From a virus (lineage: Duplodnaviria; Heunggongvirae; Uroviricota; Caudoviricetes): a DNA stretch of 41,346 nucleotides. The stretch spans positions 1 through 41,346 of the IMG/VR virus record IMGVR_UViG_2690316296_000007; one strand, given 5' to 3'. This document shows positions 1-22,849 of this stretch, piece after piece. The translations under genes were made by a program, and so were the position numbers. The notes beneath the pieces are model-generated. The model was not told the origin of the DNA. It made no database searches and saw nothing but the letters and a program-made list of their open reading frames with translations. Position 1 is the stretch's first letter, and each line of letters starts with the position of its first letter.

Positions 1-301
1 CTATTGCTGGGTAAGATCATTACGACTTGCATAGCCAATGAAGATAAATGTGACGACAAACGGCGCAGCAGTCTTCTTTTCCTTCATACTTTCCCCACCC
101 AGCATGCATACCTTCTACCATAACTGTAGTGAATGTCTGTTATGAGCGAGAAGCGGAAGTTCGTAATTATTATCAGTACAGTGCACCACTAATTATTTTC
201 ACACTGAAAGCATTAAGGTGTGAAGAGGGTTTTTATGCTTGATTTAATTATAAAATTGCAGGAAAGTGACCTTGTATCAGCTGATGATGAGTGAGTAAAA
301 A

Positions 302-1681
302 ATGTGGGAAGATAAGTATATTTGTCATAAATGCGTGAACGATAAATATGTCATGCAGCATATAATAAAAACTGGAAATAATTTTCAGATTTGCTCTTAC
401 TGCAAAAGGAAGCGTAAAAACATCCACCTCAAATATATTCTCAAGATGATGAATGAGGTTTTTGAGTACTACTATGATATATATGAGGATATCTATGATT
501 CCGGGCGCGGTGATAGCGCGCAGGATGTCATCTACGGAGAACTGGGCGTCGAATGGGACGTAGCTGAAGATATTTATGAATTTCTTTGTGATGAATATAA
601 TCCGCATAACGATTATGACTACATCCGGTATAATGACGGGTTTCTTTATCGGCACATAAATCACTATAGCGGAGAGCTTGCGCATACCTGGAGTAAAGCC
701 ACTGACTCCCTTATGAAAGAAACACGATATTTTAACCGTGAAGTTAATGATTTCCTAGATTCACTTTTCAGTGATATCGATAAACTAAAAAACAGAGACA
801 GTAATTCACCGATAAAAACTCTGACTGATGAGGTTCATCTTTTTCGTGCAAGGGTTTTTGAGGACCAAGAGGAAGTAAAGCAAGCCTTGGAGCATCCCGA
901 GAAAAATTTTGGACCTCCCCCAACAACTTTGGCTCGCTCGGGCCGTATGAACGCACAGGGGATTTCAGTATTTTACGGTGCAACCTCAGTGAATTTGGCA
1001 ATTGCTGAAGTAAGGCCGCCCGTCGGCAGTATTGTAGTAACGGCCTGTTTTGTACCGTTACGCGAGCTAAAAGTGCTGGACATTTCTGCCCTTGACTCGA
1101 TTAGTTTCGGCTCAGGTAGTAAATTTGATCCTCAGACTCGCAAAACCAGTGAGCGCGCGATTTTTTTCAGTACGCTTTCCCGTAAGTTGACGCTTCCTAC
1201 TTTTGGAAAAAGGCAGGACAGTGATTACCTCATCACCCAAGTGGTTGCCGATTACCTAGGTGACCGAAATAAATTTAAGCTTGATGGTGTCAGCTTTAAA
1301 TCTACCCAGGTAGATGCCAACGGTGAGGATGCTGAGACAGGATATAATGTCGTTCTGTTTAATAAGTCTTCCGGCGTCAGGCATGCCGCAGATAAATCTC
1401 GCCGATATAATGTTGAGATGTATGAACACATCGAAGATGACCAGTATGCTTTTGTTCCGGAAATTCAGTTGATAGTTGAGGAACAAATAAAACCGAGACA
1501 TATGGGTTCATTTTCATCCTCGCATGACAAAAATGATGCACTACTGTTGAAAACCAACAGTATGACTTATCATAAAATTACTGGTGTAAAATACCAAACA
1601 AGTGAGACGGAGATTCATCAGGGAGATAGCGTTCGAAAACAAGAGCCACCTCAGAAATTCGATGACCTGATTGACTTCTGA
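302..1681 (+). CDS. RES-domain protein with N-terminal zinc-ribbon-like extension (candidate NAD-targeting toxin/defence effector)
   Basis: 459-aa ORF; N-terminus has two CxxC pairs (CHKC ... CSYC); central segment HLFRARVF ... SGRMNAQGISVFYGATSVNLAIAEV fits the RES-domain pattern (conserved Arg, then GRxN...Y...A..E); AT-rich relative to the structural genes. Confidence 0.6.
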   Translation: MWEDKYICHKCVNDKYVMQHIIKTGNNFQICSYCKRKRKNIHLKYILKMMNEVFEYYYDIYEDIYDSGRGDSAQDVIYGELGVEWDVAEDIYEFLCDEYNPHNDYDYIRYNDGFLYRHINHYSGELAHTWSKATDSLMKETRYFNREVNDFLDSLFSDIDKLKNRDSNSPIKTLTDEVHLFRARVFEDQEEVKQALEHPEKNFGPPPTTLARSGRMNAQGISVFYGATSVNLAIAEVRPPVGSIVVTACFVPLRELKVLDISALDSISFGSGSKFDPQTRKTSERAIFFSTLSRKLTLPTFGKRQDSDYLITQVVADYLGDRNKFKLDGVSFKSTQVDANGEDAETGYNVVLFNKSSGVRHAADKSRRYNVEMYEHIEDDQYAFVPEIQLIVEEQIKPRHMGSFSSSHDKNDALLLKTNSMTYHKITGVKYQTSETEIHQGDSVRKQEPPQKFDDLIDF

Positions 1682-1905
1682 TCATCCGTTATATCAGGGT
1701 AAACTATTATTAAAGATGATGTGAGGGCAGTTAAGGAAGGAATTCACCCGGTATCGCGTTACTGGCGTCCCTTGATACCAAGCGGGCAGATTGCTGAACA
1801 GACACGTCTGTTTGAGCGAGGAGTTGGCTTTGTAGAATGCTTCAAGAGATAAAAACGCCTTATTTACGCAACTTGCTGCGAAAGGACCATGGCTTTGCTA
1901 GCTTC

Positions 1906-1945
1906 GGCACAGAGCGGACTGTCAGATTAGGCTTTACTCTGTGCC
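1906..1945. repeat. Hairpin motif copy 1 (GGCACAGAGCGGAC core; 9-bp inverted repeat ggcacagag/ctctgtgcc)
   Basis: Shares a 14-nt core with the copy at 3104..3127; sits in a GC-rich island between AT-rich cassettes. Confidence 0.4.
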
Positions 1946-2335
1946 ATAGATATGTAAGCTCACACCAGAGCTCATACAACTTCTTGCGGCATTTCCGGCC
2001 ATTCAGGATTTGCAGGATCCACACGACTGACCAGAACGCTGTAGCGTTCCCATGCCTCCAGTCGACTGCGCTCCTCATCTGTTGCCATATTCAGCCTGAC
2101 AGCGCGCTCCAGCGGCAAAATCACGGATTCAGCATCTGCTAGAAGTCTGGCTTTCCGATAGCCCATTTAAAGGATAACTTCCAAAGCAGTGGCAACTAAC
2201 ACTATTTATATCATGAGCAAGGCTTTTCCAGTTTTCATGCTCTCAGGGCATAAAAGTATCAACTATTTCTAATCCATGCCGATACTAACAAAAATACCAC
2301 CATAAAATATAATTAAGAAAATGTTAAGGATCTAC

Positions 2336-3010
2336 ATGAAAAGCTATTTAAAAGGTGTTTGGGAATACTTCGCGAGTCACATGTTGTTTATGTATCTCGG
2401 CTCAGTCTCTTTTGCATGGATTGATATCTGGTTTTTTAAAAAAATTGAACCATCAACAATTACTGCAACAGTTTCAACAATAACACTTGGACTAGCGATT
2501 TATGCATTAACAAGGGTAAATGAATGGATTAAAAACAAAAAATCAGAAAAGGCTTTCGAGAGAACTACATTGTTCATCGACAGCATGTTTCGATCAAAGG
2601 ACTTAAATCATCAATGTTATCAATCACTTATTTCTATACAGCCAAGAATAAAAAGTGAGAACCCCATACTCTACAAGCATCTCACTACAAGTGGGAGGGA
2701 GTTACTTTCTGAGTCAAAAGATTTACGATTCGAATTAGTTGCAATTCGGGATAGTTTTGGTTTGTGGAAAATCAAACCTAATCATTCAGACCTTCTAAAT
2801 AATCTCATCACCACCTACACTGCTCTTGTTGCACAATTTAATATCATTTATATTTTAATTGATGAATTAGAGCGTGGTGAAAGGGTAGTTTCTGAGTCAT
2901 CATGGGATAGTTATATCGGAATGATGGCAAGCGCTTATTCAAATTACCATGATCAGTTCGAAATATTCAAAGATTGTAGCTACAATGAACTTTTTAAAAT
3001 CATTAAATAA
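2336..3010 (+). CDS. Hypothetical membrane protein (two N-terminal TM helices)
   Basis: ORF 2321..3010; the ATG at 2336 is preceded by AAGGA; hydrophobic stretches SHMLFMYLGSVSFAWIDIWFF and TATVSTITLGLAIYAL; AT-rich. Confidence 0.45.
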   Translation: MKSYLKGVWEYFASHMLFMYLGSVSFAWIDIWFFKKIEPSTITATVSTITLGLAIYALTRVNEWIKNKKSEKAFERTTLFIDSMFRSKDLNHQCYQSLISIQPRIKSENPILYKHLTTSGRELLSESKDLRFELVAIRDSFGLWKIKPNHSDLLNNLITTYTALVAQFNIIYILIDELERGERVVSESSWDSYIGMMASAYSNYHDQFEIFKDCSYNELFKIIK

Positions 3011-3103
3011 TAATTGTCGTGTATTGCGATCATATCACCAGCGATACCCATGACATTATGGTGACCTGCTCTCCATTGATTAACACATTGTGATGTCAGT
3101 AAC

Positions 3104-3127
3104 GTCCGCTCCTGGCACAGAGCGGAC
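3104..3127. repeat. Hairpin motif copy 2 (gtccgctc-ctggcaca-gagcggac), between convergent cargo genes
   Basis: Perfect 8-bp stem; tccgctcctggcaca is shared with the copy at 4646..4668; may act as a bidirectional terminator. Confidence 0.45.
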
Positions 3128-3203
3128 GATATCACTGAGCTGAAGGTCCGCTGAGAGCGAGGAGCAGAAGTTATATTAAAAATTAATTAGCACGTTGATT
3201 TAA

Positions 3204-4502
3204 TCACCATGAAGGATAATTAGGTTTTTTTCCTCTTAAAAGAGATACTTTGTCAATTATCTCAACAGAAGCAGTTCTATAATCCTCCTGCTGAAGTAGG
3301 TGAACTGCATAATCTCTCAATTCTTGCAAAGTGGAAAAGCCGTTACTTTCGATGAGTATTATAATTATCTTAATATACTTAAAGATTTGTTCAGAGGATT
3401 CGTTCGCGTTGACGTTAAGTTCGTAAAAATCTTTACCATCATGAACAAGCTTGTTTCTTACGTCAGTATATAACTCGTCATAAACTTCTAGGTTTTTCTT
3501 AAATTTGATTAGTGAGTTATTACATGTAAGTGCTGCAATGTAGGTCCTTTGCTTCCATCCTTTCCAATTTGGGTCAATATTAGCAAGACCATCAAGTGCA
3601 AAGACTAGGTTTAGAAATTGTGATTCCGCGCCAATTGAATAAAAAGATTGCCTACATGCCCTAACTACGGAGCTAACTAATTTTGAAAGTTCATTTTCAA
3701 CGACTCCATCGTAGATAGAAGATAAATATTGCAACCCAGGGTAATACAAGCTGTCAACCTGAGGGCCTAGCCAATTATTACTCACAGCAAGGGGTCTTGA
3801 TATTCCACTTATCTTAATTGGTTTAAGATGAGTCCTCTCACGAGGAATGATTTCTACATCATAAAATCCGTCAGAGCGTTGACCTGCAGGATTAGGGGTA
3901 TATTCCATACGTGTAAATGAGCTGTGAGAAAATCTGACTAAATCAAGCGCATATTCAGCTATAGATAAACACATGTTTATAACATGGTTGTTATGATCAA
4001 TGCTTGAATTAAGTTTTAATAAATCAATATATGGTAGGTCACAGTTAAACTGTATATACGAACCATCTTGCTCTGATAATCGCTTATGTGACTCTTCATC
4101 AAATTGTCTTCCGCAATAAAAAATATACTTTCCGATCTCGATGGTTTCCTGAATGAAAATCTTCTCAATCGGCACAATAACTATGCACTCCATATTTTTG
4201 TTTTTACCCTCTAATTCAGCTAATTCTAGGTTAGAGCTTCTTGATTTAGCTAACTCTATTTCTACCCACTCAAAGCATATTGAGAAGTCTTCTAGAATTT
4301 CGATACTGCTTTTTTGATAACTATCCTTGGTATATTTAAATGTAATGCCATCTCCTTCAGGATAGGCACTGGCCCAATATCCCATATCTCTTAACTTTTT
4401 TAGAGATGTTGAGATATCGTCGACTTTATTAATAAAATCCTCTTTTCGCCATAAAACATTGCCAGTGTAGTTTTCGTACGGTGGTATTAAACGAGCTTTC
4501 AT
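3204..4502 (-). CDS. Hypothetical 432-aa cargo protein with Rx4H (HEPN-like) motif; candidate abortive-infection effector
   Basis: Long AT-rich ORF with AAGGAAG 6 nt upstream of the ATG; C-terminal region contains RNKLVHDG (R-x4-H); flanked by the repeated hairpin motif. Confidence 0.5.
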   Translation of the reverse strand: MKARLIPPYENYTGNVLWRKEDFINKVDDISTSLKKLRDMGYWASAYPEGDGITFKYTKDSYQKSSIEILEDFSICFEWVEIELAKSRSSNLELAELEGKNKNMECIVIVPIEKIFIQETIEIGKYIFYCGRQFDEESHKRLSEQDGSYIQFNCDLPYIDLLKLNSSIDHNNHVINMCLSIAEYALDLVRFSHSSFTRMEYTPNPAGQRSDGFYDVEIIPRERTHLKPIKISGISRPLAVSNNWLGPQVDSLYYPGLQYLSSIYDGVVENELSKLVSSVVRACRQSFYSIGAESQFLNLVFALDGLANIDPNWKGWKQRTYIAALTCNNSLIKFKKNLEVYDELYTDVRNKLVHDGKDFYELNVNANESSEQIFKYIKIIIILIESNGFSTLQELRDYAVHLLQQEDYRTASVEIIDKVSLLRGKKPNYPSW

Positions 4503-4645
4503 ATAACTTCCTTATTATCCAAGAGGATGTGACTGAAATTTTTATCAGACTTATCTACAATAATATAAATTGACATGAAAAATCTACTCAACAATTAACC
4601 GTTATGATTTGCTTGCGACGACTAAAACATGCCGATGGGTCGCAT

Positions 4646-4668
4646 CCGCTCCTGGCACATAGCAGTCC
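4646..4668. repeat. Hairpin motif copy 3 (ccgctcctggcacatagcagtcc), degenerate
   Basis: About 19 of 24 positions identical to copy 2; lies between the pin 3' end and the 3204..4502 gene. Confidence 0.4.
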
Positions 4669-4834
4669 GAGAGACAGTGGCGTAAAGTCATGGAGGATCG
4701 GTGGGAGGAGGCGCTAATCCTTTCATACAAAAAATATGTAAAATCAATAACGGCTGTAAATCATTCAATACTCGCACTATCGGAAGTTCACCAGCCAACC
4801 GCAGCACGTTCTTGCATACGACGAGCCTGCGGTT

Positions 4835-5389
4835 TCATTTATCTCCGACCGGAAACATCTTATACAGTGTCGATACACCAACATCATAGATGATCGCTAC
4901 CTTCTGGCGAGGAATTCCTGCTGCAATTAATCGTCCGGCCTGCTCCCATTGTTCTGGTGTAAGTTTGGGGCGACGTCCACCAATTCGTCCCTGTGCGCGA
5001 GCAGCTTCCAGTCCAGCTTTTGTTCGTTCAACAATCAGTTCACGCTCCATTTCAGCCAGGGCACCCATCACATGAAAGAAAAAGCGCCCCATTGGGGTAC
5101 TGGTATCAATTGAATCCGTCAGACTACGAAAGTTGATGCCTCGTTCGCGCAACTCCTCCACCAGCACGACAAGATGCCGCATACTGCGCCCCAGTCGGTC
5201 CAGTTTCCAGACCACCAGCGTGTCACCTGCCGATAATGTCCTGAGCAGCTTTTTCAGTCCTGGTCTGTCGGACTTTGTACCGCTTATCTTGTCTTCAAAA
5301 ATCAGCTCACATCCTGCACAGTTCAGCGCATTACGTTGTAGATCGGTATTCTGGTCATTTGTTGATACACGTACATAGCCAATAAGCAT
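4835..5389 (-). CDS. pin: Serine-recombinase DNA invertase (Pin/Gin/Hin/Cin family)
   Basis: N-terminus MLIGYVRVSTNDQNTDLQ with the catalytic Ser in the YVRVS context, resolvase-like core, C-terminal HTH; start moved to the ATG at 5389 (track ORF extends to 5425). Confidence 0.9.
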   Translation of the reverse strand: MLIGYVRVSTNDQNTDLQRNALNCAGCELIFEDKISGTKSDRPGLKKLLRTLSAGDTLVVWKLDRLGRSMRHLVVLVEELRERGINFRSLTDSIDTSTPMGRFFFHVMGALAEMERELIVERTKAGLEAARAQGRIGGRRPKLTPEQWEQAGRLIAAGIPRQKVAIIYDVGVSTLYKMFPVGDK

Positions 5390-5415
5390 GTTAAATCCCC
5401 CTGGTAAAAGCAGGA

Positions 5416-5952
5416 ATGATGCCATTTGCTTGTTATTTCTTCATTTTCATAAACGTTGGTTTGGGAGAAGGTTCGGCATTACCCGTTGGTGTGCCTGTTC
5501 CGTGGCCTTCAGCCACTCCGCCAACAGGCTGGCTGAAATGCAATGGTGCGCCTTTTTCTGCCGAAGAGTATCCGGAACTGGCAAAAGTTTATCCGACAAA
5601 TAAATTGCCAGATTTACGCGGTGAGTTTATTCGTGGCTGGGATGATGAACGTGGTGTGGATAGTGGGCGAACTCTGCTTTCAGCGCAAGGAGATGCTATT
5701 CGAAACATTACTGGCGGTTTTGGTCAGTTGCGCGTAAACAGCGAAATAAATGCAATTGTTGATGTTCAAAGTGTGAGTGGTGCTTTTTACGGAGGTACCT
5801 CAGTCCGGAATAACATCAACGTATCTATGACATACGCTAATGACCGAAAAATCCGACAAGATGTTCACTTCTCGGCGGCAAATGTTGTTCCAACAGCAAA
5901 TGAAAATCGTCCACGTAACATCGCCTTTAATTATATTGTGAGGGCCGCATGA
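5416..5952 (+). CDS. Alternative tail-fibre C-terminal cassette (Sv'-like), silent in the present orientation
   Basis: Encodes NVGLGEGSALPVGVPVPWPSATPPTGWLKCNGAPFSAEEYPELAKVYP, typical of the variable fibre tip in invertible segments; the crossover site lies just inside its 5' end; no independent expression expected. Confidence 0.7.
   Translation: MMPFACYFFIFINVGLGEGSALPVGVPVPWPSATPPTGWLKCNGAPFSAEEYPELAKVYPTNKLPDLRGEFIRGWDDERGVDSGRTLLSAQGDAIRNITGGFGQLRVNSEINAIVDVQSVSGAFYGGTSVRNNINVSMTYANDRKIRQDVHFSAANVVPTANENRPRNIAFNYIVRAA
5449..5474. repeat. Invertase crossover site 1 (gix/hix-like)
   Basis: ataaacgttggtttgggagaaggttc; its reverse complement matches the site at 7301..7325 in a ~20-nt core (ttctcccaaacca[a/c]cgttt). 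Confidence 0.7.
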
Positions 5953-6554
5953 TGAATAAAGCTGTATTAAATAGTGAACTCATTGCCATAAAAACGGGAG
6001 ACATTATCATTTATAATTATGATGGTGAAACGCGTGAATATATTTCTACATCAACTGAATATCTCGCTGTCGGCGTCGGTATCCCGGCATGTTCTTGTTT
6101 GGATGCACCAGGTACACATAAAGCTGGTTATGCAATCTGTCGCTCTGTAGATTTAAATTCATGGGAATATGTGCCAGATCATCGCGGTGAAATCGTCTAT
6201 AGCACCGAAACAGGAGAATCGAAAGAAATCACAGCTCCGGGTGATTATCCTGAAAATACAACCACTATCGCCCCGTTAACGCCATACGATGAATGGAATG
6301 GTGAGAAATGGGTGACAGATACCGAGGCACAGCACGGCGCAGCAGTAGATGCAGCAGAAGCACAGCGCCAGTCGCTGATTGATACTGCAATGGCCTCCAT
6401 CAGTCTGATTCAACTGAAATTACAGGCCGGACGGAAGCTGACGCAGGCAGAAACAACCCGCCTTAACGCTGTGCTGGATTACATTGACGCGGTGACGGCA
6501 ACAGATACCAGCACAGCGCCGGATGTCATCTGGCCTGAACTGCCGGAGGCGTAG
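5949..6554 (+). CDS. Tail fibre assembly protein (partner of the silent cassette)
   Basis: 201-aa ORF directly after the alternative fibre tip; conserved Tfa-type C-terminus (DYIDAVTATDTSTAPDVIWPELPEA). Confidence 0.8.
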   Translation: MMNKAVLNSELIAIKTGDIIIYNYDGETREYISTSTEYLAVGVGIPACSCLDAPGTHKAGYAICRSVDLNSWEYVPDHRGEIVYSTETGESKEITAPGDYPENTTTIAPLTPYDEWNGEKWVTDTEAQHGAAVDAAEAQRQSLIDTAMASISLIQLKLQAGRKLTQAETTRLNAVLDYIDAVTATDTSTAPDVIWPELPEA

Positions 6555-6963
6555 GCCATTCAATATCTGGCGCACCGGAAGTATCGATCAGCTCCAGTGC
6601 GTCCAGATAATCCAGCCACAAATTATATTGCGCCAGTTCATCACCTTTCAGACGACCAATAGCGGCTTTACCGGGCCATTGCTTACTGTTCATGTATTCG
6701 TTGGCCTGATTAAGCAATAATTGCCTTTCTGATTCTGCCTGCTGAATAAGTTCTTCATGTGATGGTGGAGGTATTAGTGCCCATGTGGGTAATCCATTTT
6801 TTCCTGCAACACGAATTTTGTCATCTGGAGGCGTATTGATTGCAAATTCATTATAAACATCATCACTGACAGCCAGAGCATCATCTGGCCATGAATTTGC
6901 ATTAATGTAATCATCCTTAAGTGCAGGATTCACAAAAATGTTTAAAGATGGACTATAAAACAT
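6526..6963 (-). CDS. Tail fibre assembly protein (partner of the expressed fibre tip)
   Basis: 145-aa ORF directly after the fibre gene; Tfa-type C-terminus (DYLDALELIDTSGAPDIEWPTPP). Confidence 0.8.
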   Translation of the reverse strand: MFYSPSLNIFVNPALKDDYINANSWPDDALAVSDDVYNEFAINTPPDDKIRVAGKNGLPTWALIPPPSHEELIQQAESERQLLLNQANEYMNSKQWPGKAAIGRLKGDELAQYNLWLDYLDALELIDTSGAPDIEWPTPPAVQAR

Positions 6964-6964
6964 A

Positions 6965-7603
6965 TTACACCCCTATAGCGATATAACGACCTAATACAGC
7001 GTTTGCAGCAGTCGCTATGCTTGAAAAACCGCGGAACTGATTTGATGTAATTGCAGAAGCCGACAGGATTCCTGCGCCTGAAGGTGTATGCCCCACATGA
7101 CTAACTATCATTCCATAACATGCTGACGGAAAGGCAAAAGGAAAATCGTTAAGATATCCGGCATCTTCACCACCAGACCCACCAAATCTCGCCTGCCCCC
7201 ACTGAATAATCAGTGTTCTCCGGGAACCTGAAATAATTAACGGGATCGTTACATACCCATTCAGGCCAATGACACCAGATGCAGTGCCAGCCAGAGATAA
7301 TTCTCCCAAACCAAGGTTTTCGAGAGCCGTTTTCACCGTGCCATCCGATTTGATATCGCCAAACGGATTTTTGCGGCTTAACAGCAGCGCACGAAGCGCG
7401 GTAAGCAACTGGTCGTGCCGCCCCTTCTCCAGGCTGGCACCGGATGCCTCCACCACGCTGCAGAGCTCTTCCTGCAACATGTCAAAGTAGTCATCATCCA
7501 GATCGGTGGCAGGCGTGCCGGTCTGGGGGTTACCACGGGTAAAACCGTTCTTACCCGCGCCGAACTTATCCTTCTGCGCGGTTTTCGTGTCTATACGATG
7601 CAT
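6965..7603 (-). CDS. Side tail fibre protein (constant N-terminal part fused to the currently expressed variable C-terminus)
   Basis: 212 aa; GGAGT Shine-Dalgarno; the crossover site encodes LENLGLGE at about residue 95, the fusion point; size and layout like e14 StfP. Confidence 0.8.
   Translation of the reverse strand: MHRIDTKTAQKDKFGAGKNGFTRGNPQTGTPATDLDDDYFDMLQEELCSVVEASGASLEKGRHDQLLTALRALLLSRKNPFGDIKSDGTVKTALENLGLGELSLAGTASGVIGLNGYVTIPLIISGSRRTLIIQWGQARFGGSGGEDAGYLNDFPFAFPSACYGMIVSHVGHTPSGAGILSASAITSNQFRGFSSIATAANAVLGRYIAIGV
7301..7325. repeat. Invertase crossover site 2, inside the tail fibre gene
   Basis: attctcccaaaccaaggttttcgag; inverted relative to site 1. Confidence 0.7.
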
Positions 7604-7606
7604 GGA

Positions 7607-8191
7607 TTACTCCGGATATTTAAAAATTACGTAGGTATGCGACGGGCAGAGTTTGTTAAGCACGCACTCGACAACGGTGTCCCCCCAGATACGCAGTGCG
7701 GAATCACAGGGATCGCCACATGTCATCCAGGTGGTGTTGGTGGCGGCTGGCATGTTGACCTGCCAGTAATACCGCCATTCCGGCGCATTCACAGCGTCAG
7801 TACAGGCCGATGAGCAGGTGAACGTGCTTTTGTCGTATCGCGTGATGGCGGCATCTGGTCTGCCCAGGGCAGCAAGCTGTGCAAGATAAAAATCCTCGTT
7901 GATGCCACCCGCCAGGTTAACCTTCGCATCCAGCCGTTGCTGACGCTGGCGAAGGGTCTGTGTCCCTGCGGGATTACATTCATCCGGCAGGCCGCACAGA
8001 CGCTCCCAGCGATTTATCAGTTCGGTGGTGGTGCGCGGATCCAGCTCCCGCATCAGGGCATCCGCACGCTGATGAACACGAGTTAATGACGGTGCCGCAC
8101 CGGCAATCGCCGGATCGCTGGCTGACCACGCCGGACCGGGCGGCAGCAGCGCCGACAACAGACGGATGTAATCATCGTTTGTCACGTCCAT
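7607..8191 (-). CDS. Tail/baseplate protein (YmfQ / Mu gp48-like)
   Basis: 194-aa ORF between the baseplate J-like gene and the fibre gene; family call by position and recalled sequence character. Confidence 0.7.
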
Positions 8192-9240
8192 GAAATCGTC
8201 CCCAGAACTGCCAGCTCATTTTTTGCAATGGAGATATTGTCCGCTGGTGCAAGCAACTGATGGCTGTATTCCCCGTTCGCACCGGAAATCGCTTCACTGA
8301 TACGCGACACCTTCAGTTCTCCCTGCGGATAACCATCACGCAGCAGGAACGAACGCAACTCGGCGGTGATGGCAGCCCGTATTTCGGGTGTGTCCGGCGT
8401 CACGCGGATATGAAAATCCACAGTATGCGCCACCGGCCTGAACACATACAAATCAGAGCCTGCCACCGGGGCCAGTGGCCCGATATGTTGTCTTGCCGCC
8501 GTTTCCGTTGATTCTTCCGGAATGGGATTAATCAGGTCACTGCCGGCAATCATCACACCGACAGTCCCCGTTCCCATCCAGTGACGGTATGTCCATGCGC
8601 GGGTAATGCCGGGCACTTCTTTAGCCCAGACGACATAGTCCCCGTCAGCCCCGCCCTGCGGCGTCCAGTAATACCGCTCAATGACGCGGGCGCGCCACGT
8701 TTCCAGATCTTCAGTATCGAATCCGCCAGTCAGGGTATCTGCCACACCGGAAGACGGCAGACCATTCACCGGCGTGACCAGGATTAATGCCGTACCGTCG
8801 TCAGCGTTACCGACCGCGCCTGCAGTTGAGCAGGCGATCGGCACGCGCAGGACTCCACCTGAGCTGGTTGCATCAGAAGTTGCCGTGTACTGAACCAGGT
8901 CATCGCGCTGAATAACACTCCCGGCGGTCACCTTCAGGCCATCGCTGACACCTTCCCAGCGCATATACCCGCTGGCAGACGTGGCCCCCTTGCGCGGACA
9001 CCGTTTCATCGCAGCATGTCGCGCCAGCCAGGACTCATCGCACAGGTCAGGCAGCATGTTCATTGCCAGATAATCGATGTAACCGTAAACCGTATGCAGC
9101 GCCGCCGCATACACCTTTGCCCGCACGTCTTCATCCATGCGCCGGAGCGTGTCGCTGACGTCCAGCCTGGCGAATAAATCGTTACGGAGCATACTGATAT
9201 TTTCTGCCAGCGTCGGGCGCTGAAATTCACTGTTCGCCAT
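8182..9240 (-). CDS. Baseplate J-like protein (Mu gp47-like)
   Basis: 352-aa ORF in the conserved baseplate gene order. Confidence 0.75.
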
Positions 9241-9655
9241 GCGTTATCGCACTCCACAGATCATCAAAAGAAATCATTACCGGTCCGTCACGACGCCAGA
9301 GAGTGATACTGTTACCCAGTTCATTAATCCCGGTGCGGCGGATATCCAGATCAATACGGGACACCACGCCGTCATCAGTCATCCATTGCAGGCATTCGCG
9401 GATATATCCCCTTACCGTCTGCACCAGCTGATTGGTCAGTTTGCTGCGCTGAAGCAGCCACAGTCGGGAGCCGTAACGGTCATTCTGTACCGCAGGCCAG
9501 GTATCCCCCCACCATCCCATCGGGACGTCGGCATTGTCATCAGGCTCCGCCCGCCGCCAGGTGAACAGGGAAATCACCACGGCGCGGGTCAGCGGATCCA
9601 GCGGTGCGCTGGCGCAGGTGCGTTTACCGTTCACCGTCAGCCACAGTTCCATCAT
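9227..9655 (-). CDS. Baseplate protein (Mu gp46-like)
   Basis: 142-aa ORF overlapping its neighbours; position in Mu-like order. Confidence 0.65.
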   Translation of the reverse strand: MMELWLTVNGKRTCASAPLDPLTRAVVISLFTWRRAEPDDNADVPMGWWGDTWPAVQNDRYGSRLWLLQRSKLTNQLVQTVRGYIRECLQWMTDDGVVSRIDLDIRRTGINELGNSITLWRRDGPVMISFDDLWSAITHGEQ

Positions 9656-10200
9656 GCCTCCATCGCTTTATCAGGTTTGTCGGTGTTACTACCCTGACCG
9701 TTCTCTCTGTGACGATGCCCGTTATAGGCAAGCCGCATCGCTGACATGGTGGTGCCGCCGGAGTCGCACAGGTCTTTCACCTGTCCGGTCACTTCCAGAT
9801 CCATTTCAAAACGTGCTTCAGGTGCATTGCGAAACGTGATCGTTTTCCCTGCACCGTCCACCACGATCCCCTCCCGGGTCAGCGTCACGGACTGCCCCTG
9901 ATCGTCATAGACAGCCACCTCCCCCGTCTGCAGCCCTTTCAGGCGGTAGCGCCGGTCCGACACCGTAACAACCACCGCATGAGAACGGTCGCCATCCGGA
10001 AACAACACCACCGCTTCCGCACCGCTGTTTGCCCTTGCGGTAAAACCGTAGGGTTCAAGATGTTCAACCCCGGCTTTGGGTTCACCGGCAATCAGGGACA
10101 CATCCACGGTCTGACATTTCGTGGCGGCACTGATGCTTTTCACCACTGCCCGCCCAATCAGGCCGAGAAGTTGTCGCTGCATGGCTTCAATCGTCCTCAT
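9652..10200 (-). CDS. Baseplate assembly/spike protein (Mu gp45 / gpV-like)
   Basis: 182-aa ORF; position in Mu-like order. Confidence 0.7.
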   Translation of the reverse strand: MRTIEAMQRQLLGLIGRAVVKSISAATKCQTVDVSLIAGEPKAGVEHLEPYGFTARANSGAEAVVLFPDGDRSHAVVVTVSDRRYRLKGLQTGEVAVYDDQGQSVTLTREGIVVDGAGKTITFRNAPEARFEMDLEVTGQVKDLCDSGGTTMSAMRLAYNGHRHRENGQGSNTDKPDKAMEA

Positions 10201-11279
10201 CAGAACGGGTCCTCCTGTACTCTGGCTTTTTTCTTTTTCCGCGCGCCGGGGGCTTCGGGTTCAGGCAGATAAGCATCAGGTGGGCCGACACGGATTTCCG
10301 TCAGGGTGCCATTCTGGTCCTGAGTAAACGTGACTTCCGAGACAAGCAGTTCGGTATTGTCGAAACCACAGACCGGATCGAAGACAATCACCCGCTGGTT
10401 GGGCTGCCACAGCGTACCGTTACCCTGTCGCCAGCCCTGCACCACATAGGTGGTTTCATCCGTCCGCGCCGCCCGTTGTCGGGCTTCAAAGTCAGCACGC
10501 GCAATACAGCCTGCCCCCGTAGCCTGCCCTGTCTGCCTGATATACATCGGACGGTAACGGGCAATAAATGCATCCTCTGTGCGGGCCCGCAGCGCGGTGG
10601 TGGTGGCCTCACCGAAATCATCGTCGTTTCCGGCACGCTGCCCCGCCACCTGGTAAACTGAAAACCGCTCCCGGATACTCTTCTCCGTATCACAGGAAAG
10701 GATGTTTTCCCCAAGTACCAGCGCGGTATGTGCCCGCGTTGAGCCAATACCACCAATCACCAGCCTGCCGTGCGGGTCGTCATAAGCCAGCGCCTGCTGC
10801 TGACCGAGTATTTTGTTGATCACCTCGATCACCGTTTCACCGTGATCAGGCTGGACATCCGGAATAACACCCGACGGCGCATCGCTGTTCACCACCTCAA
10901 TGCCGAAAGGCGCAGCAAGCGCCTGCGCAATCTGTACCAGCGATCGTCCGTTAAACTGTGTCGGTTCGGCTGCACAGTCAATCAGGTCAGCAGTCAGACT
11001 ACGTCCGGCAATACCGGTGCTGACCGAACGGGCATCGTAACGAACGGGGGTCGCCTCCACCCAGCCGGTGATCACCAGCTCATCACCAATCAGCACTTCC
11101 ACTTTTGAACCATTTTTAATGCGCGGCTGAAGCGTGGTGATACCCTCATCTCCCGGCCACTGGCGGGTGATCTCCACGCTGAAATCCCGCGCCAGCCGTT
11201 CAATACCGGCACCGATGCGCACCGATGTCCAGCCATTCCACTCTCGGCCATTTACCCGTAGCGTGACGTTATCGTTCAT
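10200..11279 (-). CDS. Baseplate hub / tail protein (Mu P / gpD-like)
   Basis: 359-aa ORF following the DNA circulation gene. Confidence 0.7.
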   Translation of the reverse strand: MNDNVTLRVNGREWNGWTSVRIGAGIERLARDFSVEITRQWPGDEGITTLQPRIKNGSKVEVLIGDELVITGWVEATPVRYDARSVSTGIAGRSLTADLIDCAAEPTQFNGRSLVQIAQALAAPFGIEVVNSDAPSGVIPDVQPDHGETVIEVINKILGQQQALAYDDPHGRLVIGGIGSTRAHTALVLGENILSCDTEKSIRERFSVYQVAGQRAGNDDDFGEATTTALRARTEDAFIARYRPMYIRQTGQATGAGCIARADFEARQRAARTDETTYVVQGWRQGNGTLWQPNQRVIVFDPVCGFDNTELLVSEVTFTQDQNGTLTEIRVGPPDAYLPEPEAPGARKKKKARVQEDPF

Positions 11280-12604
11280 TGCACTGGCACCTTCAGAGGG
11301 ATCACCGGCACAAAGCCGGGATGCGTAATGGCATTACGCCGGATAATGTCCGCGTCACGCGCCGCGTTATCAAACCAGGTCGCCGCCAGCACCAGCGCGG
11401 GTAAAACCTCATCCGGCGTGCGCTGAATGATCCGTGCAGACTGTTCAAGGCGCGTGTTGATATCCGCATTCAGATCTGCTTTCACCCGGCGCAGCGCCAG
11501 AAACAGCGCATCACTGGTTGTACGGGACAACTCCTTATCAGTTGCCGTATTCAGTGTGTCGCGAATGTCAGTCAGTTCTTCCCACGTCGGCAGGTCAACC
11601 GTGCTTTTCACCGCCGGAGCATTGTTCAGTGCCGGATGCGTGACGGAAGGCCAGCCAGTGCTCTGCGCGGGTGTTGTTGCCTGCCCCACTGCGGCATTCT
11701 GCATCACCGCGGAAGTTGTTGGCGCAGGCAATCGGGTGACGGCATACGCCGCTTCGCTGATTGCGGTCGTACGAAGGATGCTGGCAACCACGTTACGCTG
11801 CTGCGTCGCCGTGGCGGTGGTTTTACTGTCCGTTTTCCAGACGCCGCGCGGTTGCAGATCGCTGCCGAGGCTGACACCGGAAAGCGTTTTGATCATGGTG
11901 ACCAGGTCGCTGGCGTTACCATAAAGGCGTTTCCCGGTACGCCACATTTTCTGCACCTGCTCAACGAAATTTTTGCCTGACGATGGCGGCGGCAGAAGTA
12001 CCGAGATATCCCCCTGCAACAGCCTGGCGGCATCCGATACGGCAGAATCCACCACTTTCATCGCATCAGAAACATACCCCAGCATTGTGCCGGCATTACC
12101 GACGACGTCGTTCTGCACAAAATCCGCCACGCCATCGATACTGAAACCACTGAAGCTGTCACTGATGCAGTCATCCAGTGCAGAACAGGATGACATCAGC
12201 GTCTGCGCCGTCGCCGCACCTGAAGTGGGATAAGAGAGTTCTCCCGCTTCGACAAACTTCAGGTCAAAGCGGACAATACGCCCTTCACTCTTCGATGTGC
12301 TGACCCGAACTTCCCCGTCAACACAGACTTTCAGCTCACCGTAAGTCGGATGGACAAGCGTGCCGGGACCGGGTTTATTCAGCGCGTCAATCAGGCGATC
12401 GCGCTGGTCAAAGCAGTCATCTCCCACCACATAAGCCGTGATGGACGGGCGGAAAGTGACTTTTCCCAGATCTTCGGTATAGGGTTTGTCGCGGTTCGGA
12501 TATTCGTGTGTTTCCACACGACGGCCGGTTCCCGCACTTTCTTCTTCAACCTTAAACGGCACACCTCGAAATGACGCATCCTGAAGCCTGTCTTTCCACG
12601 TCAT
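11276..12604 (-). CDS. DNA circulation protein (Mu N-like)
   Basis: ORF 11276..12610; the ATG at 12604 is preceded by GGAGTG; lies between tape measure and baseplate hub as in Mu-like tails. Confidence 0.65.
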   Translation of the reverse strand: MTWKDRLQDASFRGVPFKVEEESAGTGRRVETHEYPNRDKPYTEDLGKVTFRPSITAYVVGDDCFDQRDRLIDALNKPGPGTLVHPTYGELKVCVDGEVRVSTSKSEGRIVRFDLKFVEAGELSYPTSGAATAQTLMSSCSALDDCISDSFSGFSIDGVADFVQNDVVGNAGTMLGYVSDAMKVVDSAVSDAARLLQGDISVLLPPPSSGKNFVEQVQKMWRTGKRLYGNASDLVTMIKTLSGVSLGSDLQPRGVWKTDSKTTATATQQRNVVASILRTTAISEAAYAVTRLPAPTTSAVMQNAAVGQATTPAQSTGWPSVTHPALNNAPAVKSTVDLPTWEELTDIRDTLNTATDKELSRTTSDALFLALRRVKADLNADINTRLEQSARIIQRTPDEVLPALVLAATWFDNAARDADIIRRNAITHPGFVPVIPLKVPVQ

Positions 12605-12614
12605 ATACACTCCG

Positions 12615-12645
12615 AAAATAAAAAAGCCACCTATTAGAAGGTGGC
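12615..12645 (-). terminator. Rho-independent terminator after the tail-operon moron
   Basis: 7-bp stem GCCACCT/AGGTGGC with a 6-nt loop, followed on the minus strand by TTTTTTATTTT. Confidence 0.55.
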
Positions 12646-12665
12646 CTTGTAATGAATTTTATTAA

Positions 12666-13196
12666 TTAGCGAGTCAGAAACAACGAATCTTTATACTTTT
12701 GCTGTTGTTCATTTAAATACTTAGCTGTTTCATCGCTGGCAAATGGAAATATTACCGTATTTTTAGGCATGGTAATTTCTTTTTTGTCCAGCGTCAGAGT
12801 AAACATAGGAACATACTGAGCAGAGTAACGCACCGCAGAAACGAGCTCTAGTTTAGACTCTTCAATAACACTTAAATTATCCAGGCTAACTTTCTCTTCA
12901 TCTTTTTTCTTTGACGCATTTAAAGTTTTTATTACTTTATTTAATTTCTCCTGAAAATCCTCCTTAAAGTTTTCAGGATTGCCGTCGACAACAAGAATCT
13001 GTTCGCCCTGATTATCTGGAAAAATAATCTTTGCACTTATCAATTTATTTTCTTTATAAACATCACCAAGTTTTATGGCTCCTCCAGATAACTGAATAAT
13101 ATGTTCATCTTTAAAGGAGATGTTGCCAGAGATTATGAGAGATGAAAAAATAGCCGCTGCTCCAAGAATTACACTTGCTGTGATATAGCCTTTCAT
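12666..13196 (-). CDS. Moron: predicted secreted/periplasmic protein, unknown function
   Basis: AT-rich 176-aa ORF between tape measure and DNA circulation genes; signal-peptide-like N-terminus MKGYITASVILGAAAIFSSLIISG; lysine-rich; own terminator. Confidence 0.55.
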   Translation of the reverse strand: MKGYITASVILGAAAIFSSLIISGNISFKDEHIIQLSGGAIKLGDVYKENKLISAKIIFPDNQGEQILVVDGNPENFKEDFQEKLNKVIKTLNASKKKDEEKVSLDNLSVIEESKLELVSAVRYSAQYVPMFTLTLDKKEITMPKNTVIFPFASDETAKYLNEQQQKYKDSLFLTR

Positions 13197-13287
13197 TTTT
13201 CGCCTATTAACATTTTTCTAAATGTGCATTAATTCTATCACTCTATTTATGACTTACAACCAGCAATACATGTGAGGGGAATCCTAG

Positions 13288-15120
13288 CTACCAAAATCGG
13301 GTATAGCCAACATCGTGATTTATATCAATGCCACTGGAGCGTGTTTCCGTAACCCGCATACCTGGTGGCATATTTATAAATGATACCTTGATCTCACCAT
13401 CAACTTTTGGCGCGGTAGCTTTATTAATCATGAAGGGATTCGAGCCTGTGGCATCGGAGGCGTTGTTTGACTGAGCCGGATCTACCGCCGGATAAGGTGT
13501 GTATCCCCGCGCCGGTATTCCCGTCCCATAAGCATCATAAGCACCCGCGCCCCACTGCGCAGAGTTAATGGCATCGACCGTGTCACCGGAACTGTCGGTA
13601 AACCACTCAATAATTGGCTTCAGCTTGTCCCACATATCCTGAAACCACTTAACAACCGGCCCCCAGTTATTGATCACCATCCCCAGCGGCGACCAGGCAA
13701 AAACTTTCTTAAGGAGTTCCCAGCCAGCCTCAAAATAAGGACTAATGGTTTCCCAGAGCTTCTTGAAATAAGGTCCGACAACATCCCAGTTGGTGATAAT
13801 TAATCCCGCAGCCAGGGCTATCGCCGTCGCAATCATGCCAATCGGCGTCATCGACATGATCCTGCTGACAATGCTGATGGCACTGCCCACGCCCATCAAT
13901 CCCAGTTTCAGAATCGCAAGACCGGCAGCAAGCCCGACGACGCCGCGAATAACCCGGGGATTTTCATCCGCAAACTTCGTGAATTTCTCCCCCAACTCCC
14001 CCAGCCACTGCGTGATGTTCTTAGCGTCACCAGAAAATGCGCCGCCAATAGCCGCAAGGCCGTTAGTTGCGGTCCCCGTCATTGCCTCCCACAGGTTGGA
14101 CAGCGTACCAAGCTGAGCCTGAACACGTTTATTCAGGCTGGCCTGTTTATTCATCTTCTGCTGGATCTGATCGTAGCCATCCTTTCCTTTATCGATCAGC
14201 GCATTGACCACCTGAAGGGTTTCGGCATCATCACCAAATATTGCCTTAAGTACACCGGTTCGCTTAACGTCGGTCAGTTTTCGCAGCTTTGCCAGTTGCC
14301 TGAACATGTTATCAAGACCACCAAAACTCCCTTTGCCATCAGTAAAATCGAGCTGTACCCCGAGTTTCTGGCGGGCCATGATTTTATTGACGTCCCTGAT
14401 TTTCTTAACGCTTAATCCGGACTGGATAACTTTTCGCAGGGCATTACCTGCCGACTCCCCGTTCATCCCCATCTGATCCATCATGACACTGATGGGGGCA
14501 AGACTCTGTGCAGCCTGAAGACCGTCCTTATTCACCATCTTCAGAACAGAGCTGGTTTTAGTGAAGAATGACAGCATGTTGGTGTCGTCAACGCCCAGAT
14601 AAAACGCCTTCTGAATTGTGTCGAACAGCCCCATCATGTCTTCTGAGGCCGTTCCGGTAGCATCCTGCATCTTTGCGGCAAACTCGGCAGCCGCTTCCGG
14701 TGTTTTTTTCAGTTGTACCGCAAGATAAGCTGTCGCTTTACCCACACCACCCAGAATGTTTTCTGCCGGGATCCCCTGACGCACCAGCATCTGCATCATG
14801 TTCTGGAAATCAGCCGTTGTACCGGGTAGCTGGTTACCCAGGCCAATAGCCAGTTTATTGATGTCCTGAAAGCTCTTTCCAACCTCGCCGTTCGCATCCA
14901 TCATGGCGACTTTCAGCCCGGTAGCGGCGTTTTCCTGATCGGCATAAGATTTCAGGGAAAGCGTCAGCCCCGCTGCCAGTCCGCCACCAAGCGCCAGCCC
15001 ACCCTGTGACGCTTCTTCCGCCTGGCGTTTAAATCCCCGGATTTTCTTTTGCATTTTCGACAGCGCGGGAGAAAGCCTGTCGACACCGGTGATCAACGCC
15101 TTAAGCTCAAATTCAGCCAT
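13288..15120 (-). CDS. Tail tape measure protein
   Basis: 610 aa, Ala/Gly-rich with hydrophobic segments, immediately after the chaperone pair. Confidence 0.85.
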   Translation of the reverse strand: MAEFELKALITGVDRLSPALSKMQKKIRGFKRQAEEASQGGLALGGGLAAGLTLSLKSYADQENAATGLKVAMMDANGEVGKSFQDINKLAIGLGNQLPGTTADFQNMMQMLVRQGIPAENILGGVGKATAYLAVQLKKTPEAAAEFAAKMQDATGTASEDMMGLFDTIQKAFYLGVDDTNMLSFFTKTSSVLKMVNKDGLQAAQSLAPISVMMDQMGMNGESAGNALRKVIQSGLSVKKIRDVNKIMARQKLGVQLDFTDGKGSFGGLDNMFRQLAKLRKLTDVKRTGVLKAIFGDDAETLQVVNALIDKGKDGYDQIQQKMNKQASLNKRVQAQLGTLSNLWEAMTGTATNGLAAIGGAFSGDAKNITQWLGELGEKFTKFADENPRVIRGVVGLAAGLAILKLGLMGVGSAISIVSRIMSMTPIGMIATAIALAAGLIITNWDVVGPYFKKLWETISPYFEAGWELLKKVFAWSPLGMVINNWGPVVKWFQDMWDKLKPIIEWFTDSSGDTVDAINSAQWGAGAYDAYGTGIPARGYTPYPAVDPAQSNNASDATGSNPFMINKATAPKVDGEIKVSFINMPPGMRVTETRSSGIDINHDVGYTRFW

Positions 15121-15531
15121 GTGTGCGTTTCTCCTGCTCTATCCTGTTTGCCTGACTGACCAGCAAGGGAATTTCACTGATCGGCATATTCAGCAATTCG
15201 AAGGGATTAATGCGCCAGTAGCTGGCGCAGTCAAAGAAGCGATCAGTGAGGTATTCAGCCGTCAGGCCTGGAGGAAAAAACCAGCCACAAGCCACGCCGC
15301 TGCATTCAGGTCTGCCGGAGACATCTGGTCGACAGAGCTTTGCGGCACTTTCGCCAGCCGCACAATGTATTTCGACACCACATGCGCCAGAAGTCTGACG
15401 GACTCATCCTGATTCATCTGGTAGGGATACCCCAGCTCGCGGACATCCTTCCCGGTGGGTTCATCAAACTCCAGTACGGAGAGTGTCTCACCATGAGCGA
15501 TAATCGGTTTCTTTAACTCAAGCTCTTTCAT
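15113..15531 (-). CDS. Tail assembly chaperone (G-like product 15262..15531) and -1 frameshift extension (GT-like, to 15113)
   Basis: Two overlapping ORFs in frames 0 and -1 between tube and tape measure; slippery heptamer T_TTT_TTC in the overlap. Confidence 0.6.
15274..15280 (-). promoter_or_regulatory. Programmed -1 frameshift slippery site (U UUU UUC)
   Basis: Heptamer in X_XXY_YYZ register at the end of the chaperone ORF; shifted frame continues ...GFFPPGLTAEYL... Confidence 0.5.
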
Positions 15532-15887
15532 TACTGGTAATCCCCTTCTTCACCGTGGAACTCAAGATCAACCGTGCCTTCTTCGGCATTATGGTTCGCT
15601 TCTCCGTGCAGCCAGGCGGACGACAATACATAGACCTGACCGTTCGCCAGCTCGGCAGTGATGGTCATCTCATCAGACGAGGTGATTTTGCTCACCGGAA
15701 AATTCTTCGGCACCTTGAAGGTCCCTTTGACATAAGGCGCACGGTGAGTTTCCTTGCGGTCCACTGAACCGTCCAGGCCGATGATGTCATCATTGACCGT
15801 CCTGTTCATGGGCACCTCAATGCCGCCGGTCAGCGATAGCTGCTGACCGTCAATTTTGAAATAACAGGTTCCCCCGATACGGGCCAT
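15531..15887 (-). CDS. Tail tube protein
   Basis: 118-aa ORF immediately after the sheath gene (TAATG overlap). Confidence 0.75.
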   Translation of the reverse strand: MARIGGTCYFKIDGQQLSLTGGIEVPMNRTVNDDIIGLDGSVDRKETHRAPYVKGTFKVPKNFPVSKITSSDEMTITAELANGQVYVLSSAWLHGEANHNAEEGTVDLEFHGEEGDYQ

Positions 15888-17383
15888 TATGCAGACTCCT
15901 CTGAATACTGAAGACGGAACTGGTTAACCACGGCAAAAACACGCAACTGGTTAACATAGTCAGGCGGGAACAGCGTGTTCAGGCGGTTCGGATCGCTGGC
16001 ATCACGCTCAACAACCAAGTACTGCTTAAACAGTTCGTAGTTTTCCACGATCCCCGCACACTCAAGCTGACGGTAGGTTGCCAGCAGTTCCCCTTTGATT
16101 ACCGCCGGGGTGACAATCGCCTGACCGGGACCAAAGCGGGTACCGTCGCTGGCAAGCTTGTGACGCCCGTACTTACTGGTAATGACGGATTTCAGTTTGC
16201 GCAGTACATACGCACTGGTATGCAGCGTCTCGCTGTCGAGGTAGCTGTTATCCGCAACCCCGTAAGCATTTTTCCTGTACGTGGTGACATCACGCTGAAT
16301 GCGCAGCCCCCCGCTTTCGACATACGCCGTTGCCACGCCATGAGACAGCAGGGTCTGCTGCTCGGTCATCGTGAACCGTTTCCCCTTCGGCGCAGGCAGC
16401 ATACCCACCAGCTCACCGGTCTGCGTGGGACGTGCCGGATCGTTGCGGATAAACACCGCTGCGCGGGCGGTACGGCTTGCCGCCAGCTCGTCGGCAGGCG
16501 TCTGGGTCTCTTTTTCGTACCCCGCTAGGGTGATGTGCTGCTGGTTAAACTGGTCACCTGCGTTCACCAGTTCTGACAGTGTGCCGGTCTTTGCCGTATA
16601 CACATGACCATACAGCTGACGCGCATAGCTCCAGCGACCGCTGGTATCGTTCATCTCGGTCACCAGCGTGTTAACGGAGGCCGTGTCGTTGAACGGCAGA
16701 CCGATATAATCAAACGGCTCATCCGCCATTGCAGCCACCGCGCCGGTGAGAACCGGAGCGCCCGTTCCGGCGGTCCCCGTCGCCACGGCAATCTGTACGC
16801 CCGCTGGCAGCACTTCACCCCCACCGAAGCCGTAGTAATTGAGGCTGACAGGAATTTCATTCCCGCAAAGCCCCTTATGACGCGCGGTCAGCGTGACAAC
16901 ACCAGCCGAAGATGAAGCTGTAAACGGCAGAGTCGGAACGGCATTGATGGCATCCTGGATACTGCTGGCAATCGTCGTGACGTTATCGCCGTTGGTCACC
17001 GGAGCCTGCACACGGGTACGTCCCACATAGACATTCACCGTGCCGCTTTCGGTTGCTTCCCCGGTCACCGTCAGCGTAACCGTTGCCGCCGCGCCTGTGG
17101 CTTCCGGAACGGCAATCACATACAGCTCGCCAAACGGGTCAGTCTGGCGATAAGCCTCGACCATACGCGCCAGCTGACTTCCCGCACCACAAATCTGGCG
17201 TGCATAGTCTGCCGACGGCATCAGCACCAGGCTGTTGGCAACAATCTCTGCACCGTTATTGGCATGACCAATCAGCAGCGATGCTCCGCTGTCCTGTGCA
17301 GTATTCGCCGCCGAGTTATCCATTTCCGCATAAAACAGCGGAACCAGCGTATTCGACGGAATGGTGTTAAAGCTTATCGTCAT
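15887..17383 (-). CDS. Contractile tail sheath protein
   Basis: 498-aa ORF with sheath-like character, upstream of tube. Confidence 0.85.
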   Translation of the reverse strand: MTISFNTIPSNTLVPLFYAEMDNSAANTAQDSGASLLIGHANNGAEIVANSLVLMPSADYARQICGAGSQLARMVEAYRQTDPFGELYVIAVPEATGAAATVTLTVTGEATESGTVNVYVGRTRVQAPVTNGDNVTTIASSIQDAINAVPTLPFTASSSAGVVTLTARHKGLCGNEIPVSLNYYGFGGGEVLPAGVQIAVATGTAGTGAPVLTGAVAAMADEPFDYIGLPFNDTASVNTLVTEMNDTSGRWSYARQLYGHVYTAKTGTLSELVNAGDQFNQQHITLAGYEKETQTPADELAASRTARAAVFIRNDPARPTQTGELVGMLPAPKGKRFTMTEQQTLLSHGVATAYVESGGLRIQRDVTTYRKNAYGVADNSYLDSETLHTSAYVLRKLKSVITSKYGRHKLASDGTRFGPGQAIVTPAVIKGELLATYRQLECAGIVENYELFKQYLVVERDASDPNRLNTLFPPDYVNQLRVFAVVNQFRLQYSEESA

Positions 17384-17537: not shown

Positions 17538-17545
17538 GATGATTC

Positions 17546-19314: not shown

Positions 19315-19316
19315 AC

Positions 19317-22838: not shown

Positions 22839-22849
22839 AATTACCTCAG

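Follow-up and report, generated by a model that had tools for sequence, protein, structure and literature searches.

The question raised by this locus is what kind of protein is encoded by a gene carried at the end of an Escherichia coli prophage, beyond the DNA invertase gene pinE. The window, meaning the whole stretch of DNA analysed (41,346 nucleotides, positions 1 to 41,346 of the IMG/VR virus record IMGVR_UViG_2690316296_000007), is an E. coli prophage of the e14/SfV kind in which the tail and baseplate genes are Mu-type; its insertion adjoins paoABCD and yagU, and it shows 99.9% identity to strain 19SZHZ886Rt. The gene product, of 432 amino acids, is most likely a new kind of single-protein HEPN enzyme that would cut RNA. 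By analogy with known defence nucleases, a probability of roughly 0.6 is given to the fuller proposal that it acts as a standalone, infection-triggered and metal-independent RNase of the HEPN type, constituting a single-gene abortive-infection module.

The gene and its position beyond pinE

An earlier, sequence-only reading of this DNA had described an AT-rich orphan gene with a strong ribosome-binding site, placed past pin in a position used for defence cargo, and each of these points stood up. The reading frame is open on the minus strand from an ATG start, and has a GC content of 35.3%, against 54.8% for the structural genes (7001-25000). Its start codon is closely preceded by a Shine-Dalgarno sequence and, at a greater distance, by a candidate promoter (Table 1); little weight can be placed on the latter, because sigma-70-like sites proved no commoner in the region, in a consensus scan, than in shuffles. 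The protein is WP_053897774.1 in the RefSeq annotation of strain 19SZHZ886Rt, and an exact-sequence look-up found it on 193 public contigs, in entries named only 'hypothetical protein'. No match was obtained in Pfam, NCBIfam, PADLOC or PHROGs, the sole hit being to PHROGs at E 0.08; nor did a tblastn search of the INPHARED phages yield a match to the gene, or a literature search by accession any paper on the protein family.

Relatives are nevertheless plentiful. A word-indexed search returned 171, nearly all of them 425-440 amino acids long, from Enterobacterales, Pseudomonas, Vibrio, Photobacterium, Shewanella, Idiomarina, Marinobacter, Methylomonas, betaproteobacteria and one cyanobacterium, and an exhaustive profile search gave 194 representatives at E up to 0.001. 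The 90% cluster has 207 members, all called hypothetical, from at least eight enterobacterial genera, its sources including Escherichia, Salmonella, Klebsiella, Serratia, Morganella, Citrobacter, Trabulsiella and E. albertii. Homologues are present on eight IMG/VR viral contigs. The gene itself is rare in E. coli, with 6-7 carriers among 5426 complete genomes, and this scarcity, together with the occurrence of copies at least 90% identical across so many genera, points to horizontal spread. Some UniRef entries for relatives bear the name 'Apea-like HEPN domain-containing protein', a naming that could not be reproduced with Pfam: when 39 close and 41 distant relatives were searched (limits E 10 and 0.1), no named Abi HEPN or HEPN_Apea family was matched, and weak matches to HEPN_RiboL-PSP were seen in three relatives, the best at E 0.0045. 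In E. coli JB2 (locus L002, 4873-6898) the 3' end of the HEPN gene has been cut by the IS5-family element ISKpn26, leaving an ORF of 314 amino acids.

The location of pinE (Table 1) puts the gene just past pin. At exactly the same place other E. coli strains hold different cargo, namely DUF4365 or FRG-domain genes, which supports the view of this position as one for defence cargo. Small serine recombinases have been found to mark defence loci (PMC13552941), and the tail-fibre/invertase hot spot, together with such recombinases, has been tied to defence cargo (PMC13552941; bioRxiv 10.1101/2024.10.15.618418).

Several other features of the prophage were recorded. The segment of tail-fibre and assembly genes by pinE (5416-7603 in the window) is found in both orientations among otherwise near-identical prophages (L028 compared with L031, and L001 with L002), as expected for an active Pin-type invertible segment. 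Three more AT-rich islands, at about 12300-13500, 25300-27000 and 28000-30000, where GC falls to 0.29 against about 0.55-0.59 around them, are likely to be additional cargo or moron loci. A RES-domain protein of 459 amino acids is encoded at 302-1681 on the plus strand (Pfam RES, E = 3e-14) and is annotated as a RES family NAD+ phosphorylase; it also gives a weak match to HEPN/RES N-terminal domain 1, and an Xre-type antitoxin was not evident. The gene at 2321-3010 (plus strand) encodes a protein of 229 amino acids (224 in RefSeq) with no family match in any library. The RES gene, a tail-fibre-assembly remnant (1972-2157) and the 229-aa gene recur in the P2-like prophage of another strain, between tail-fibre and tail-sheath genes, so the RES module has moved between phage hot spots.

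Table 1. Positions in the window of the 432-aa gene, the parts of its product, the boundary repeats and pinE
Feature	Position	Strand	Basis or remark
CDS, 432-aa protein	3204..4502	-	ATG start; ORF list; RefSeq annotation of the 99.9% identical locus
Shine-Dalgarno AAGGAAG	4507..4513	-	5 nt ahead of the ATG; read directly from the sequence
Sigma-70-like promoter candidate (TTGAGT, 18 nt, TATATT)	4562..4591	-	9/12 consensus positions
N-terminal alpha/beta domain, residues 1-100	4203..4502	-	beta-beta-alpha-beta-beta-alpha-beta order
Beta-rich linker/middle region, residues 101-165	4008..4202	-	DSSP; distant relatives match from profile position about 100-150 on
C-terminal module, residues 166-432	3207..4007	-	HEPN-type helical bundle; beta-hairpin insertion at residues 214-234
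Codons R349-N-K-L-V-H354, predicted catalytic R-x4-H	3441..3458	-	End of helix 331-353; invariant down to 16% identity
Codon of D187, third invariant residue	3942..3944	-	Alignment A4; candidate conserved acidic residue of HEPN active sites
Complete boundary element	3095..3178	+	Arm A 3104-3127, 18-nt spacer, arm B 3146-3169; nhmmer E = 5e-26
Arm-A half-site	4644..4667	+	Pin-side cassette boundary; similarity to other pinE loci begins exactly here
Arm-B half-site	135..158	+	Outer cargo boundary, upstream of the RES gene; nhmmer match 121-163, E = 1.2e-4
Partial A arm	1906-1919		In the window
pinE, small serine DNA invertase	4835..5425	-	Pfam Resolvase + HTH_7; RefSeq annotation; landmark beside the cargo region

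Fold and invariant residues of the 432-aa protein

The sequence-only reading had pointed to an RNKLVHDG motif near the C-terminus, and had tentatively taken it for the R-x4-H signature of HEPN RNases. The motif is present, as residues 349-356. By itself a bare R-x4-H is weak evidence, since one or more appear in 27% of shuffled versions of the protein; another R-x4-H, at residues 396-401, is not conserved among relatives. The motif at 349-354 behaves quite differently. In a close alignment (A1) of 39 relatives at 44-86% identity there are 61 invariant columns, among them R349, N350, L352, V353 and H354. In a distant alignment (A4) of 41 proteins possessing the C-terminal module, with identities down to 16%, only D187, R349 and H354 remain invariant.

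The fold is in keeping with this. An AlphaFold2 model, run with the family alignment and assigned secondary structure by DSSP, has a pLDDT of 91.6 and a pTM of 0.86, and contains the four-helix up-and-down bundle that defines the HEPN superfamily. In the model helix 331-353 has the motif at its C-terminal end, with a loop after it; in HEPN proteins the R-x4-6-H motif is placed at the C-terminal end of helix 3, with a polar residue after the arginine (Anantharaman et al., PMC3710099). That polar residue (N, D or H) is N350 here, invariant among full-length relatives and replaced by threonine in a distant branch (RTxIVH). A conserved acidic residue ahead of the motif is also frequent in HEPN families (PMC3710099), usually in an E-x3-[KR] pattern in helix 2; the 432-aa protein has D-x2-R in helix 169-193, formed by D187 and the nearly invariant R190, and the spacing is therefore different. 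As modelled, N350 fits the polar role in HEPN proteins and D187 may take the acidic one, and the geometry of the predicted R349/H354 site would be that of a HEPN active site. The HEPN assignment has thus gained in strength, from the invariance of R349 and H354, the position of the motif at the end of a helix before a loop, and the asparagine after the arginine. The fold comparison named YutE, LAS1L, the HepT protein SO_3166, HI0074, ST0689 and TT1696; a Foldseek search of the PDB with the model gave a best E of 0.7, and a family-profile search of PDB sequences returned only chance hits, to Hsp90 and Dps.

It had also been said of this protein that no fold other than the motif was recognisable. 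This needs qualifying, for the N-terminus forms a distinct and mobile alpha/beta domain. Exhaustive profile searching resolved the protein into two modules: one from position 1 to about 85-128, seen by itself or joined to other partners, and one from about 100-150 to 429, seen with other N-termini, the beta-rich middle region being conserved jointly with the C-terminal module in distant relatives. The N-terminal domain, of about 85 residues and with the signature GNLxW ... GYWAS.FPEGDG.TF ... DF..F.W, is previously undescribed. It is also portable, for it is found fused to the divergent HEPN branch with RTxIVH, fused to other C-terminal regions, standing alone, and at the C-terminus of unrelated proteins. 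No functional lead was found for this domain, and we infer that it may be the regulatory or sensing part of the protein.

Cassette contexts and a two-arm repeat

The surroundings of the gene vary greatly from one genome to another. The most widely shared neighbour gene was present in four of 21 genomes, and on the side facing away from pin identical copies adjoin different genes (the 229-aa gene in the window, genes for 260 or 373 amino acids elsewhere), so the idea of a conserved partner gene was rejected. A nucleotidyltransferase antitoxin in particular is not conserved beside the gene across the 21 genomes, a weak NTP_transf_2 neighbour being seen at locus L006 only. Defence genes are frequent among the neighbours of homologues, being those of CBASS (E1-E2), Gabija (GajA), SngC, BrxH, HamB and type I methyltransferases, and many other neighbours in the 21 genomes are housekeeping genes; as a whole the genomic context is no more than suggestive of defence. 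In Trabulsiella odontotermitis the homologue stands second in a row of four single-gene modules, after a weak HEPN_RiboL-PSP-like protein and before an Mrr-type nuclease (Mrr_cat) and then AbiV.

The homologue in Vibrio parahaemolyticus, at 57% identity, is a cassette in a chromosomal integron (L059-L062). The array has 18 Vibrio-type attC repeats in 13.3 kb, and the gene, at 6001-7299, has one attC upstream (5836-5983) and another overlapping its stop codon (7291-7397); it is for this homologue only that the arrangement of an integron cassette, an ORF followed by attC in a co-oriented array, was found. ParE/Phd and acetyltransferase cassettes are carried in the same array. Defence systems are reportedly stored in integron arrays of the Vibrio type (bioRxiv 10.1101/2024.07.02.601686).

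In the window the gene is flanked by a repeat, which the sequence-only reading had described as a bracketing hairpin. The 19-nt repeat TCCGCTCCTGGCACAGAGC (3105-3123) is real and is present on both sides of the gene, with a one-mismatch copy at 4645-4663 (two matches, against 0.02 expected), but a hairpin fold is predicted only for the copy within 3100-3131 (z = -3.5 to -4.1), with z = +0.7 for the one on the pin side, and the repeat proved to belong to one arm, A, of a two-arm site. Each arm is 24 nt long and the whole site about 66 nt. Arm B is an imperfect inverted copy of arm A, the differences between the two being themselves conserved among copies, and a single strand of the element folds as a long imperfect hairpin. 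Explanation of the repeat as a simple terminator hairpin was rejected, since one copy alone folds, neither has a U-tract, and a terminator scan was silent. A search of 1600-5000 with Rfam found nothing relevant. The repeat also seems unlike the gix/hix-type consensus of Pin crossover sites, and the idea that it is such a site was dropped.

The complete element stands between the 229-aa gene and the 432-aa gene, and in all enterobacterial loci examined it lies 77 nt past the stop codon of the latter. From the four whole or partial copies in the window (Table 1), copies of the element, whole or half, are seen to mark the boundaries of cargo modules. The 229-aa gene is also found without the HEPN gene, in the P2-like prophage and in a dynamin/DUF3800 island, and each time ends at arm A. 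Further two-arm elements were located at L005, L006, L027, L036-L039 and L048-L058. When loci are compared, the gene side of the element is constant and everything past arm A differs, a pattern to be expected of exchange at the site. Copies were found in 997 of 5426 E. coli genomes, with one to four intergenic positions per genome, and on 12 viral contigs.

A candidate for the enzyme of such exchange is a tyrosine recombinase of 200 amino acids, comprising a catalytic domain only and present in 863 genomes. It was encoded within about 3 kb of the element in all four of the E. coli contexts sampled, in copies more than 90% identical to one another; none was found within the window. It scores 58 bits against a cut-off of 220, and lies far under the cut-offs of the Xer and integron-integrase models. 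The element was likewise not accepted as an integron attC, because the AAC and GTT boxes are inconsistent, these flanks being present in only about half of the complete elements, and there is no IntI. In an Idiomarina sp. metagenome-assembled genome (L012:1600-2236) a frameshifted copy of the recombinase, at 78-88% amino-acid identity, was observed with an arm-A-like site; it lies directly downstream of a HEPN homologue of 53% identity, which links the gene family to the recombinase in a distant genus. A remnant of the recombinase was also seen in the pin cargo of another E. coli strain.

It is tempting to suggest that the 432-aa gene is the cargo of an undescribed system of cassette exchange, made up of the two-arm site and the 200-aa recombinase, and that the HEPN protein founds a new defence family with a new sensor domain; as a combined proposal this is possible, with the odds somewhat against it. 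The recombinase and its site would shuffle single-gene defence modules (the HEPN protein, AbiV, the Mrr-type nuclease, the RES protein and others) between different prophage hot spots and chromosomal islands in the Enterobacterales, the hot spots including the position past pin, the P2 Z/fun locus and the lambdoid immunity regions. Such a system would be analogous to integrons and to the pdif modules of Acinetobacter, yet distinct from both. If active, the element and the small recombinase would account for the exchange of such defence modules from one phage hot spot to another, unrelated one. No description of the two-arm element was found in the literature searched, and an earlier one may exist; the element with its recombinase is the most novel lead from the analysis.

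Proposed action and comparison with known HEPN systems

The 432-aa protein is probably an anti-phage suicide switch, and for this role, its trigger and its RNA target a scheme can be put forward by analogy with the single-protein HEPN defence nucleases. Its C-terminal module is probably catalytic, with R349, H354 and probably also D187 at the predicted active site. The protein would be produced constitutively from its own promoter and held inactive; its non-catalytic N-terminal part would sense a cue of phage infection; the HEPN domains would pair to give a composite active site; and the paired enzyme would cut cellular RNA, so that translation would halt and the infection abort. Nucleases of this sort most often attack the anticodon loops of tRNAs. 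The gene would need no partner and moves as a single-gene cassette, in Vibrio as an integron cassette, and in the prophage hot spots of enterobacteria as a module with two-arm sites at its boundaries.

A rather unlikely alternative, and the best surviving one, is that the protein is an active HEPN toxin that serves to stabilise the cassette or prophage, by addiction or post-segregational killing, or to bring on dormancy under stress, instead of defending against phage. Integron arrays commonly contain toxin genes, those of HEPN type included, and a role in stress or dormancy has been proposed for them (PMC3710099); the ParE/Phd cassettes of the Vibrio array accord with this, as does the IS5-family truncation in one E. 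coli genome, such as might befall a costly toxin. Addiction modules, however, normally need an antitoxin, and no antitoxin-like partner is conserved beside the gene; the N-terminal region, long and non-catalytic, has the look of a sensor or regulator and not of a minimal toxin; and neighbouring cassettes include AbiV and restriction-type genes. It is distinctly improbable that the C-terminal bundle is non-catalytic, its arginine, histidine and aspartate serving for binding or structure, as they might in a protein that binds nucleic acid or a ligand, or that its likeness to HEPN is merely that of one helical bundle to another. Very improbable indeed is a function in the life cycle of the prophage itself, such as RNA processing in lytic growth or host takeover: the gene does lie in a prophage beside the tail-fibre and invertase module, and homologues do occur on IMG/VR viral contigs, but nearly all related prophages are without it (the pinE end of the query is matched in 3625 E. 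coli genomes, the gene in only 6-7), the INPHARED phages have no match, homologues occupy non-phage settings (the Vibrio integron and chromosomal islands), and the GC content of the gene is 20 points under that of the phage.

Under the preferred reading, that of an infection-triggered RNase, the 432-aa protein has to be set beside several kinds of HEPN protein. The minimal HEPN toxins of HepT/MNT systems (PDB 5yep, 7ae2) have about 130-140 amino acids and are paired with a nucleotidyltransferase antitoxin, whereas the 432-aa protein is without a conserved partner and has about 250 extra residues fused in cis. The integron-cassette HEPN family represented by PDB 3jrt, and the HEPN-type defence cassettes of Vibrio chromosomal integrons, are carried as single-gene integron cassettes, as is the V. 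parahaemolyticus homologue. The lactococcal-type Abi proteins with HEPN domains (AbiV, AbiJ, AbiD/F and the HEPN part of AbiA) differ in that their profiles do not match the 432-aa protein.

A closer likeness is to ApeA, reportedly one of the defence systems of Gao et al. 2020, which is also encoded by a single gene and has a C-terminal HEPN domain with R-x4-H behind a large non-catalytic N-terminal part. ApeA has been described as an abortive-infection tRNA anticodon nuclease with an N-terminal ligand pocket (bioRxiv 10.64898/2026.01.26.701840). It is larger, however, at about 580 amino acids, and mostly helical: its N domain is catenin-like, its Mid domain is PafA-like and its HEPN domain is split. 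In the 432-aa protein the N domain is alpha/beta and the middle region rich in beta structure. PADLOC, whose models extend to candidate as well as known defence systems, includes one for ApeA. The ApeA and HEPN_Apea models gave no match to the 432-aa protein (PADLOC at E up to 1; Pfam), and membership of ApeA was rejected on both profile and architecture. DARNA, too, is a single E. coli defence protein, of 456 amino acids, in which a HEPN domain is joined to a sensor domain without catalytic function, and is a HEPN tRNase activated by single-stranded DNA bound to phage SSB (bioRxiv 10.64898/2026.02.22.705581). Its domains stand in the reverse order, with HEPN at residues 1-159 and a Pds5-like helical sensor at the C-terminus; on account of that order, and as sequence similarity was not detected, membership of DARNA was rejected.

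The 432-aa protein is therefore a new architecture within a known kind of system, in a family that no profile library recognises. Because PADLOC does not see the family, such cargo of prophages and integrons is left out of counts. The standalone HEPN nucleases ApeA, DARNA, PrrC and RloC serve as models for the coupling, in one protein, of the sensing of infection to the destruction of RNA, and to our knowledge each of the known ones uses a different sensor. To these the 432-aa family adds an architecture that is widespread, in Enterobacterales, Pseudomonas, Vibrio, Shewanella, betaproteobacteria and a cyanobacterium, and its N-terminal domain, hitherto undescribed and shared with other proteins, may lead to a new trigger.
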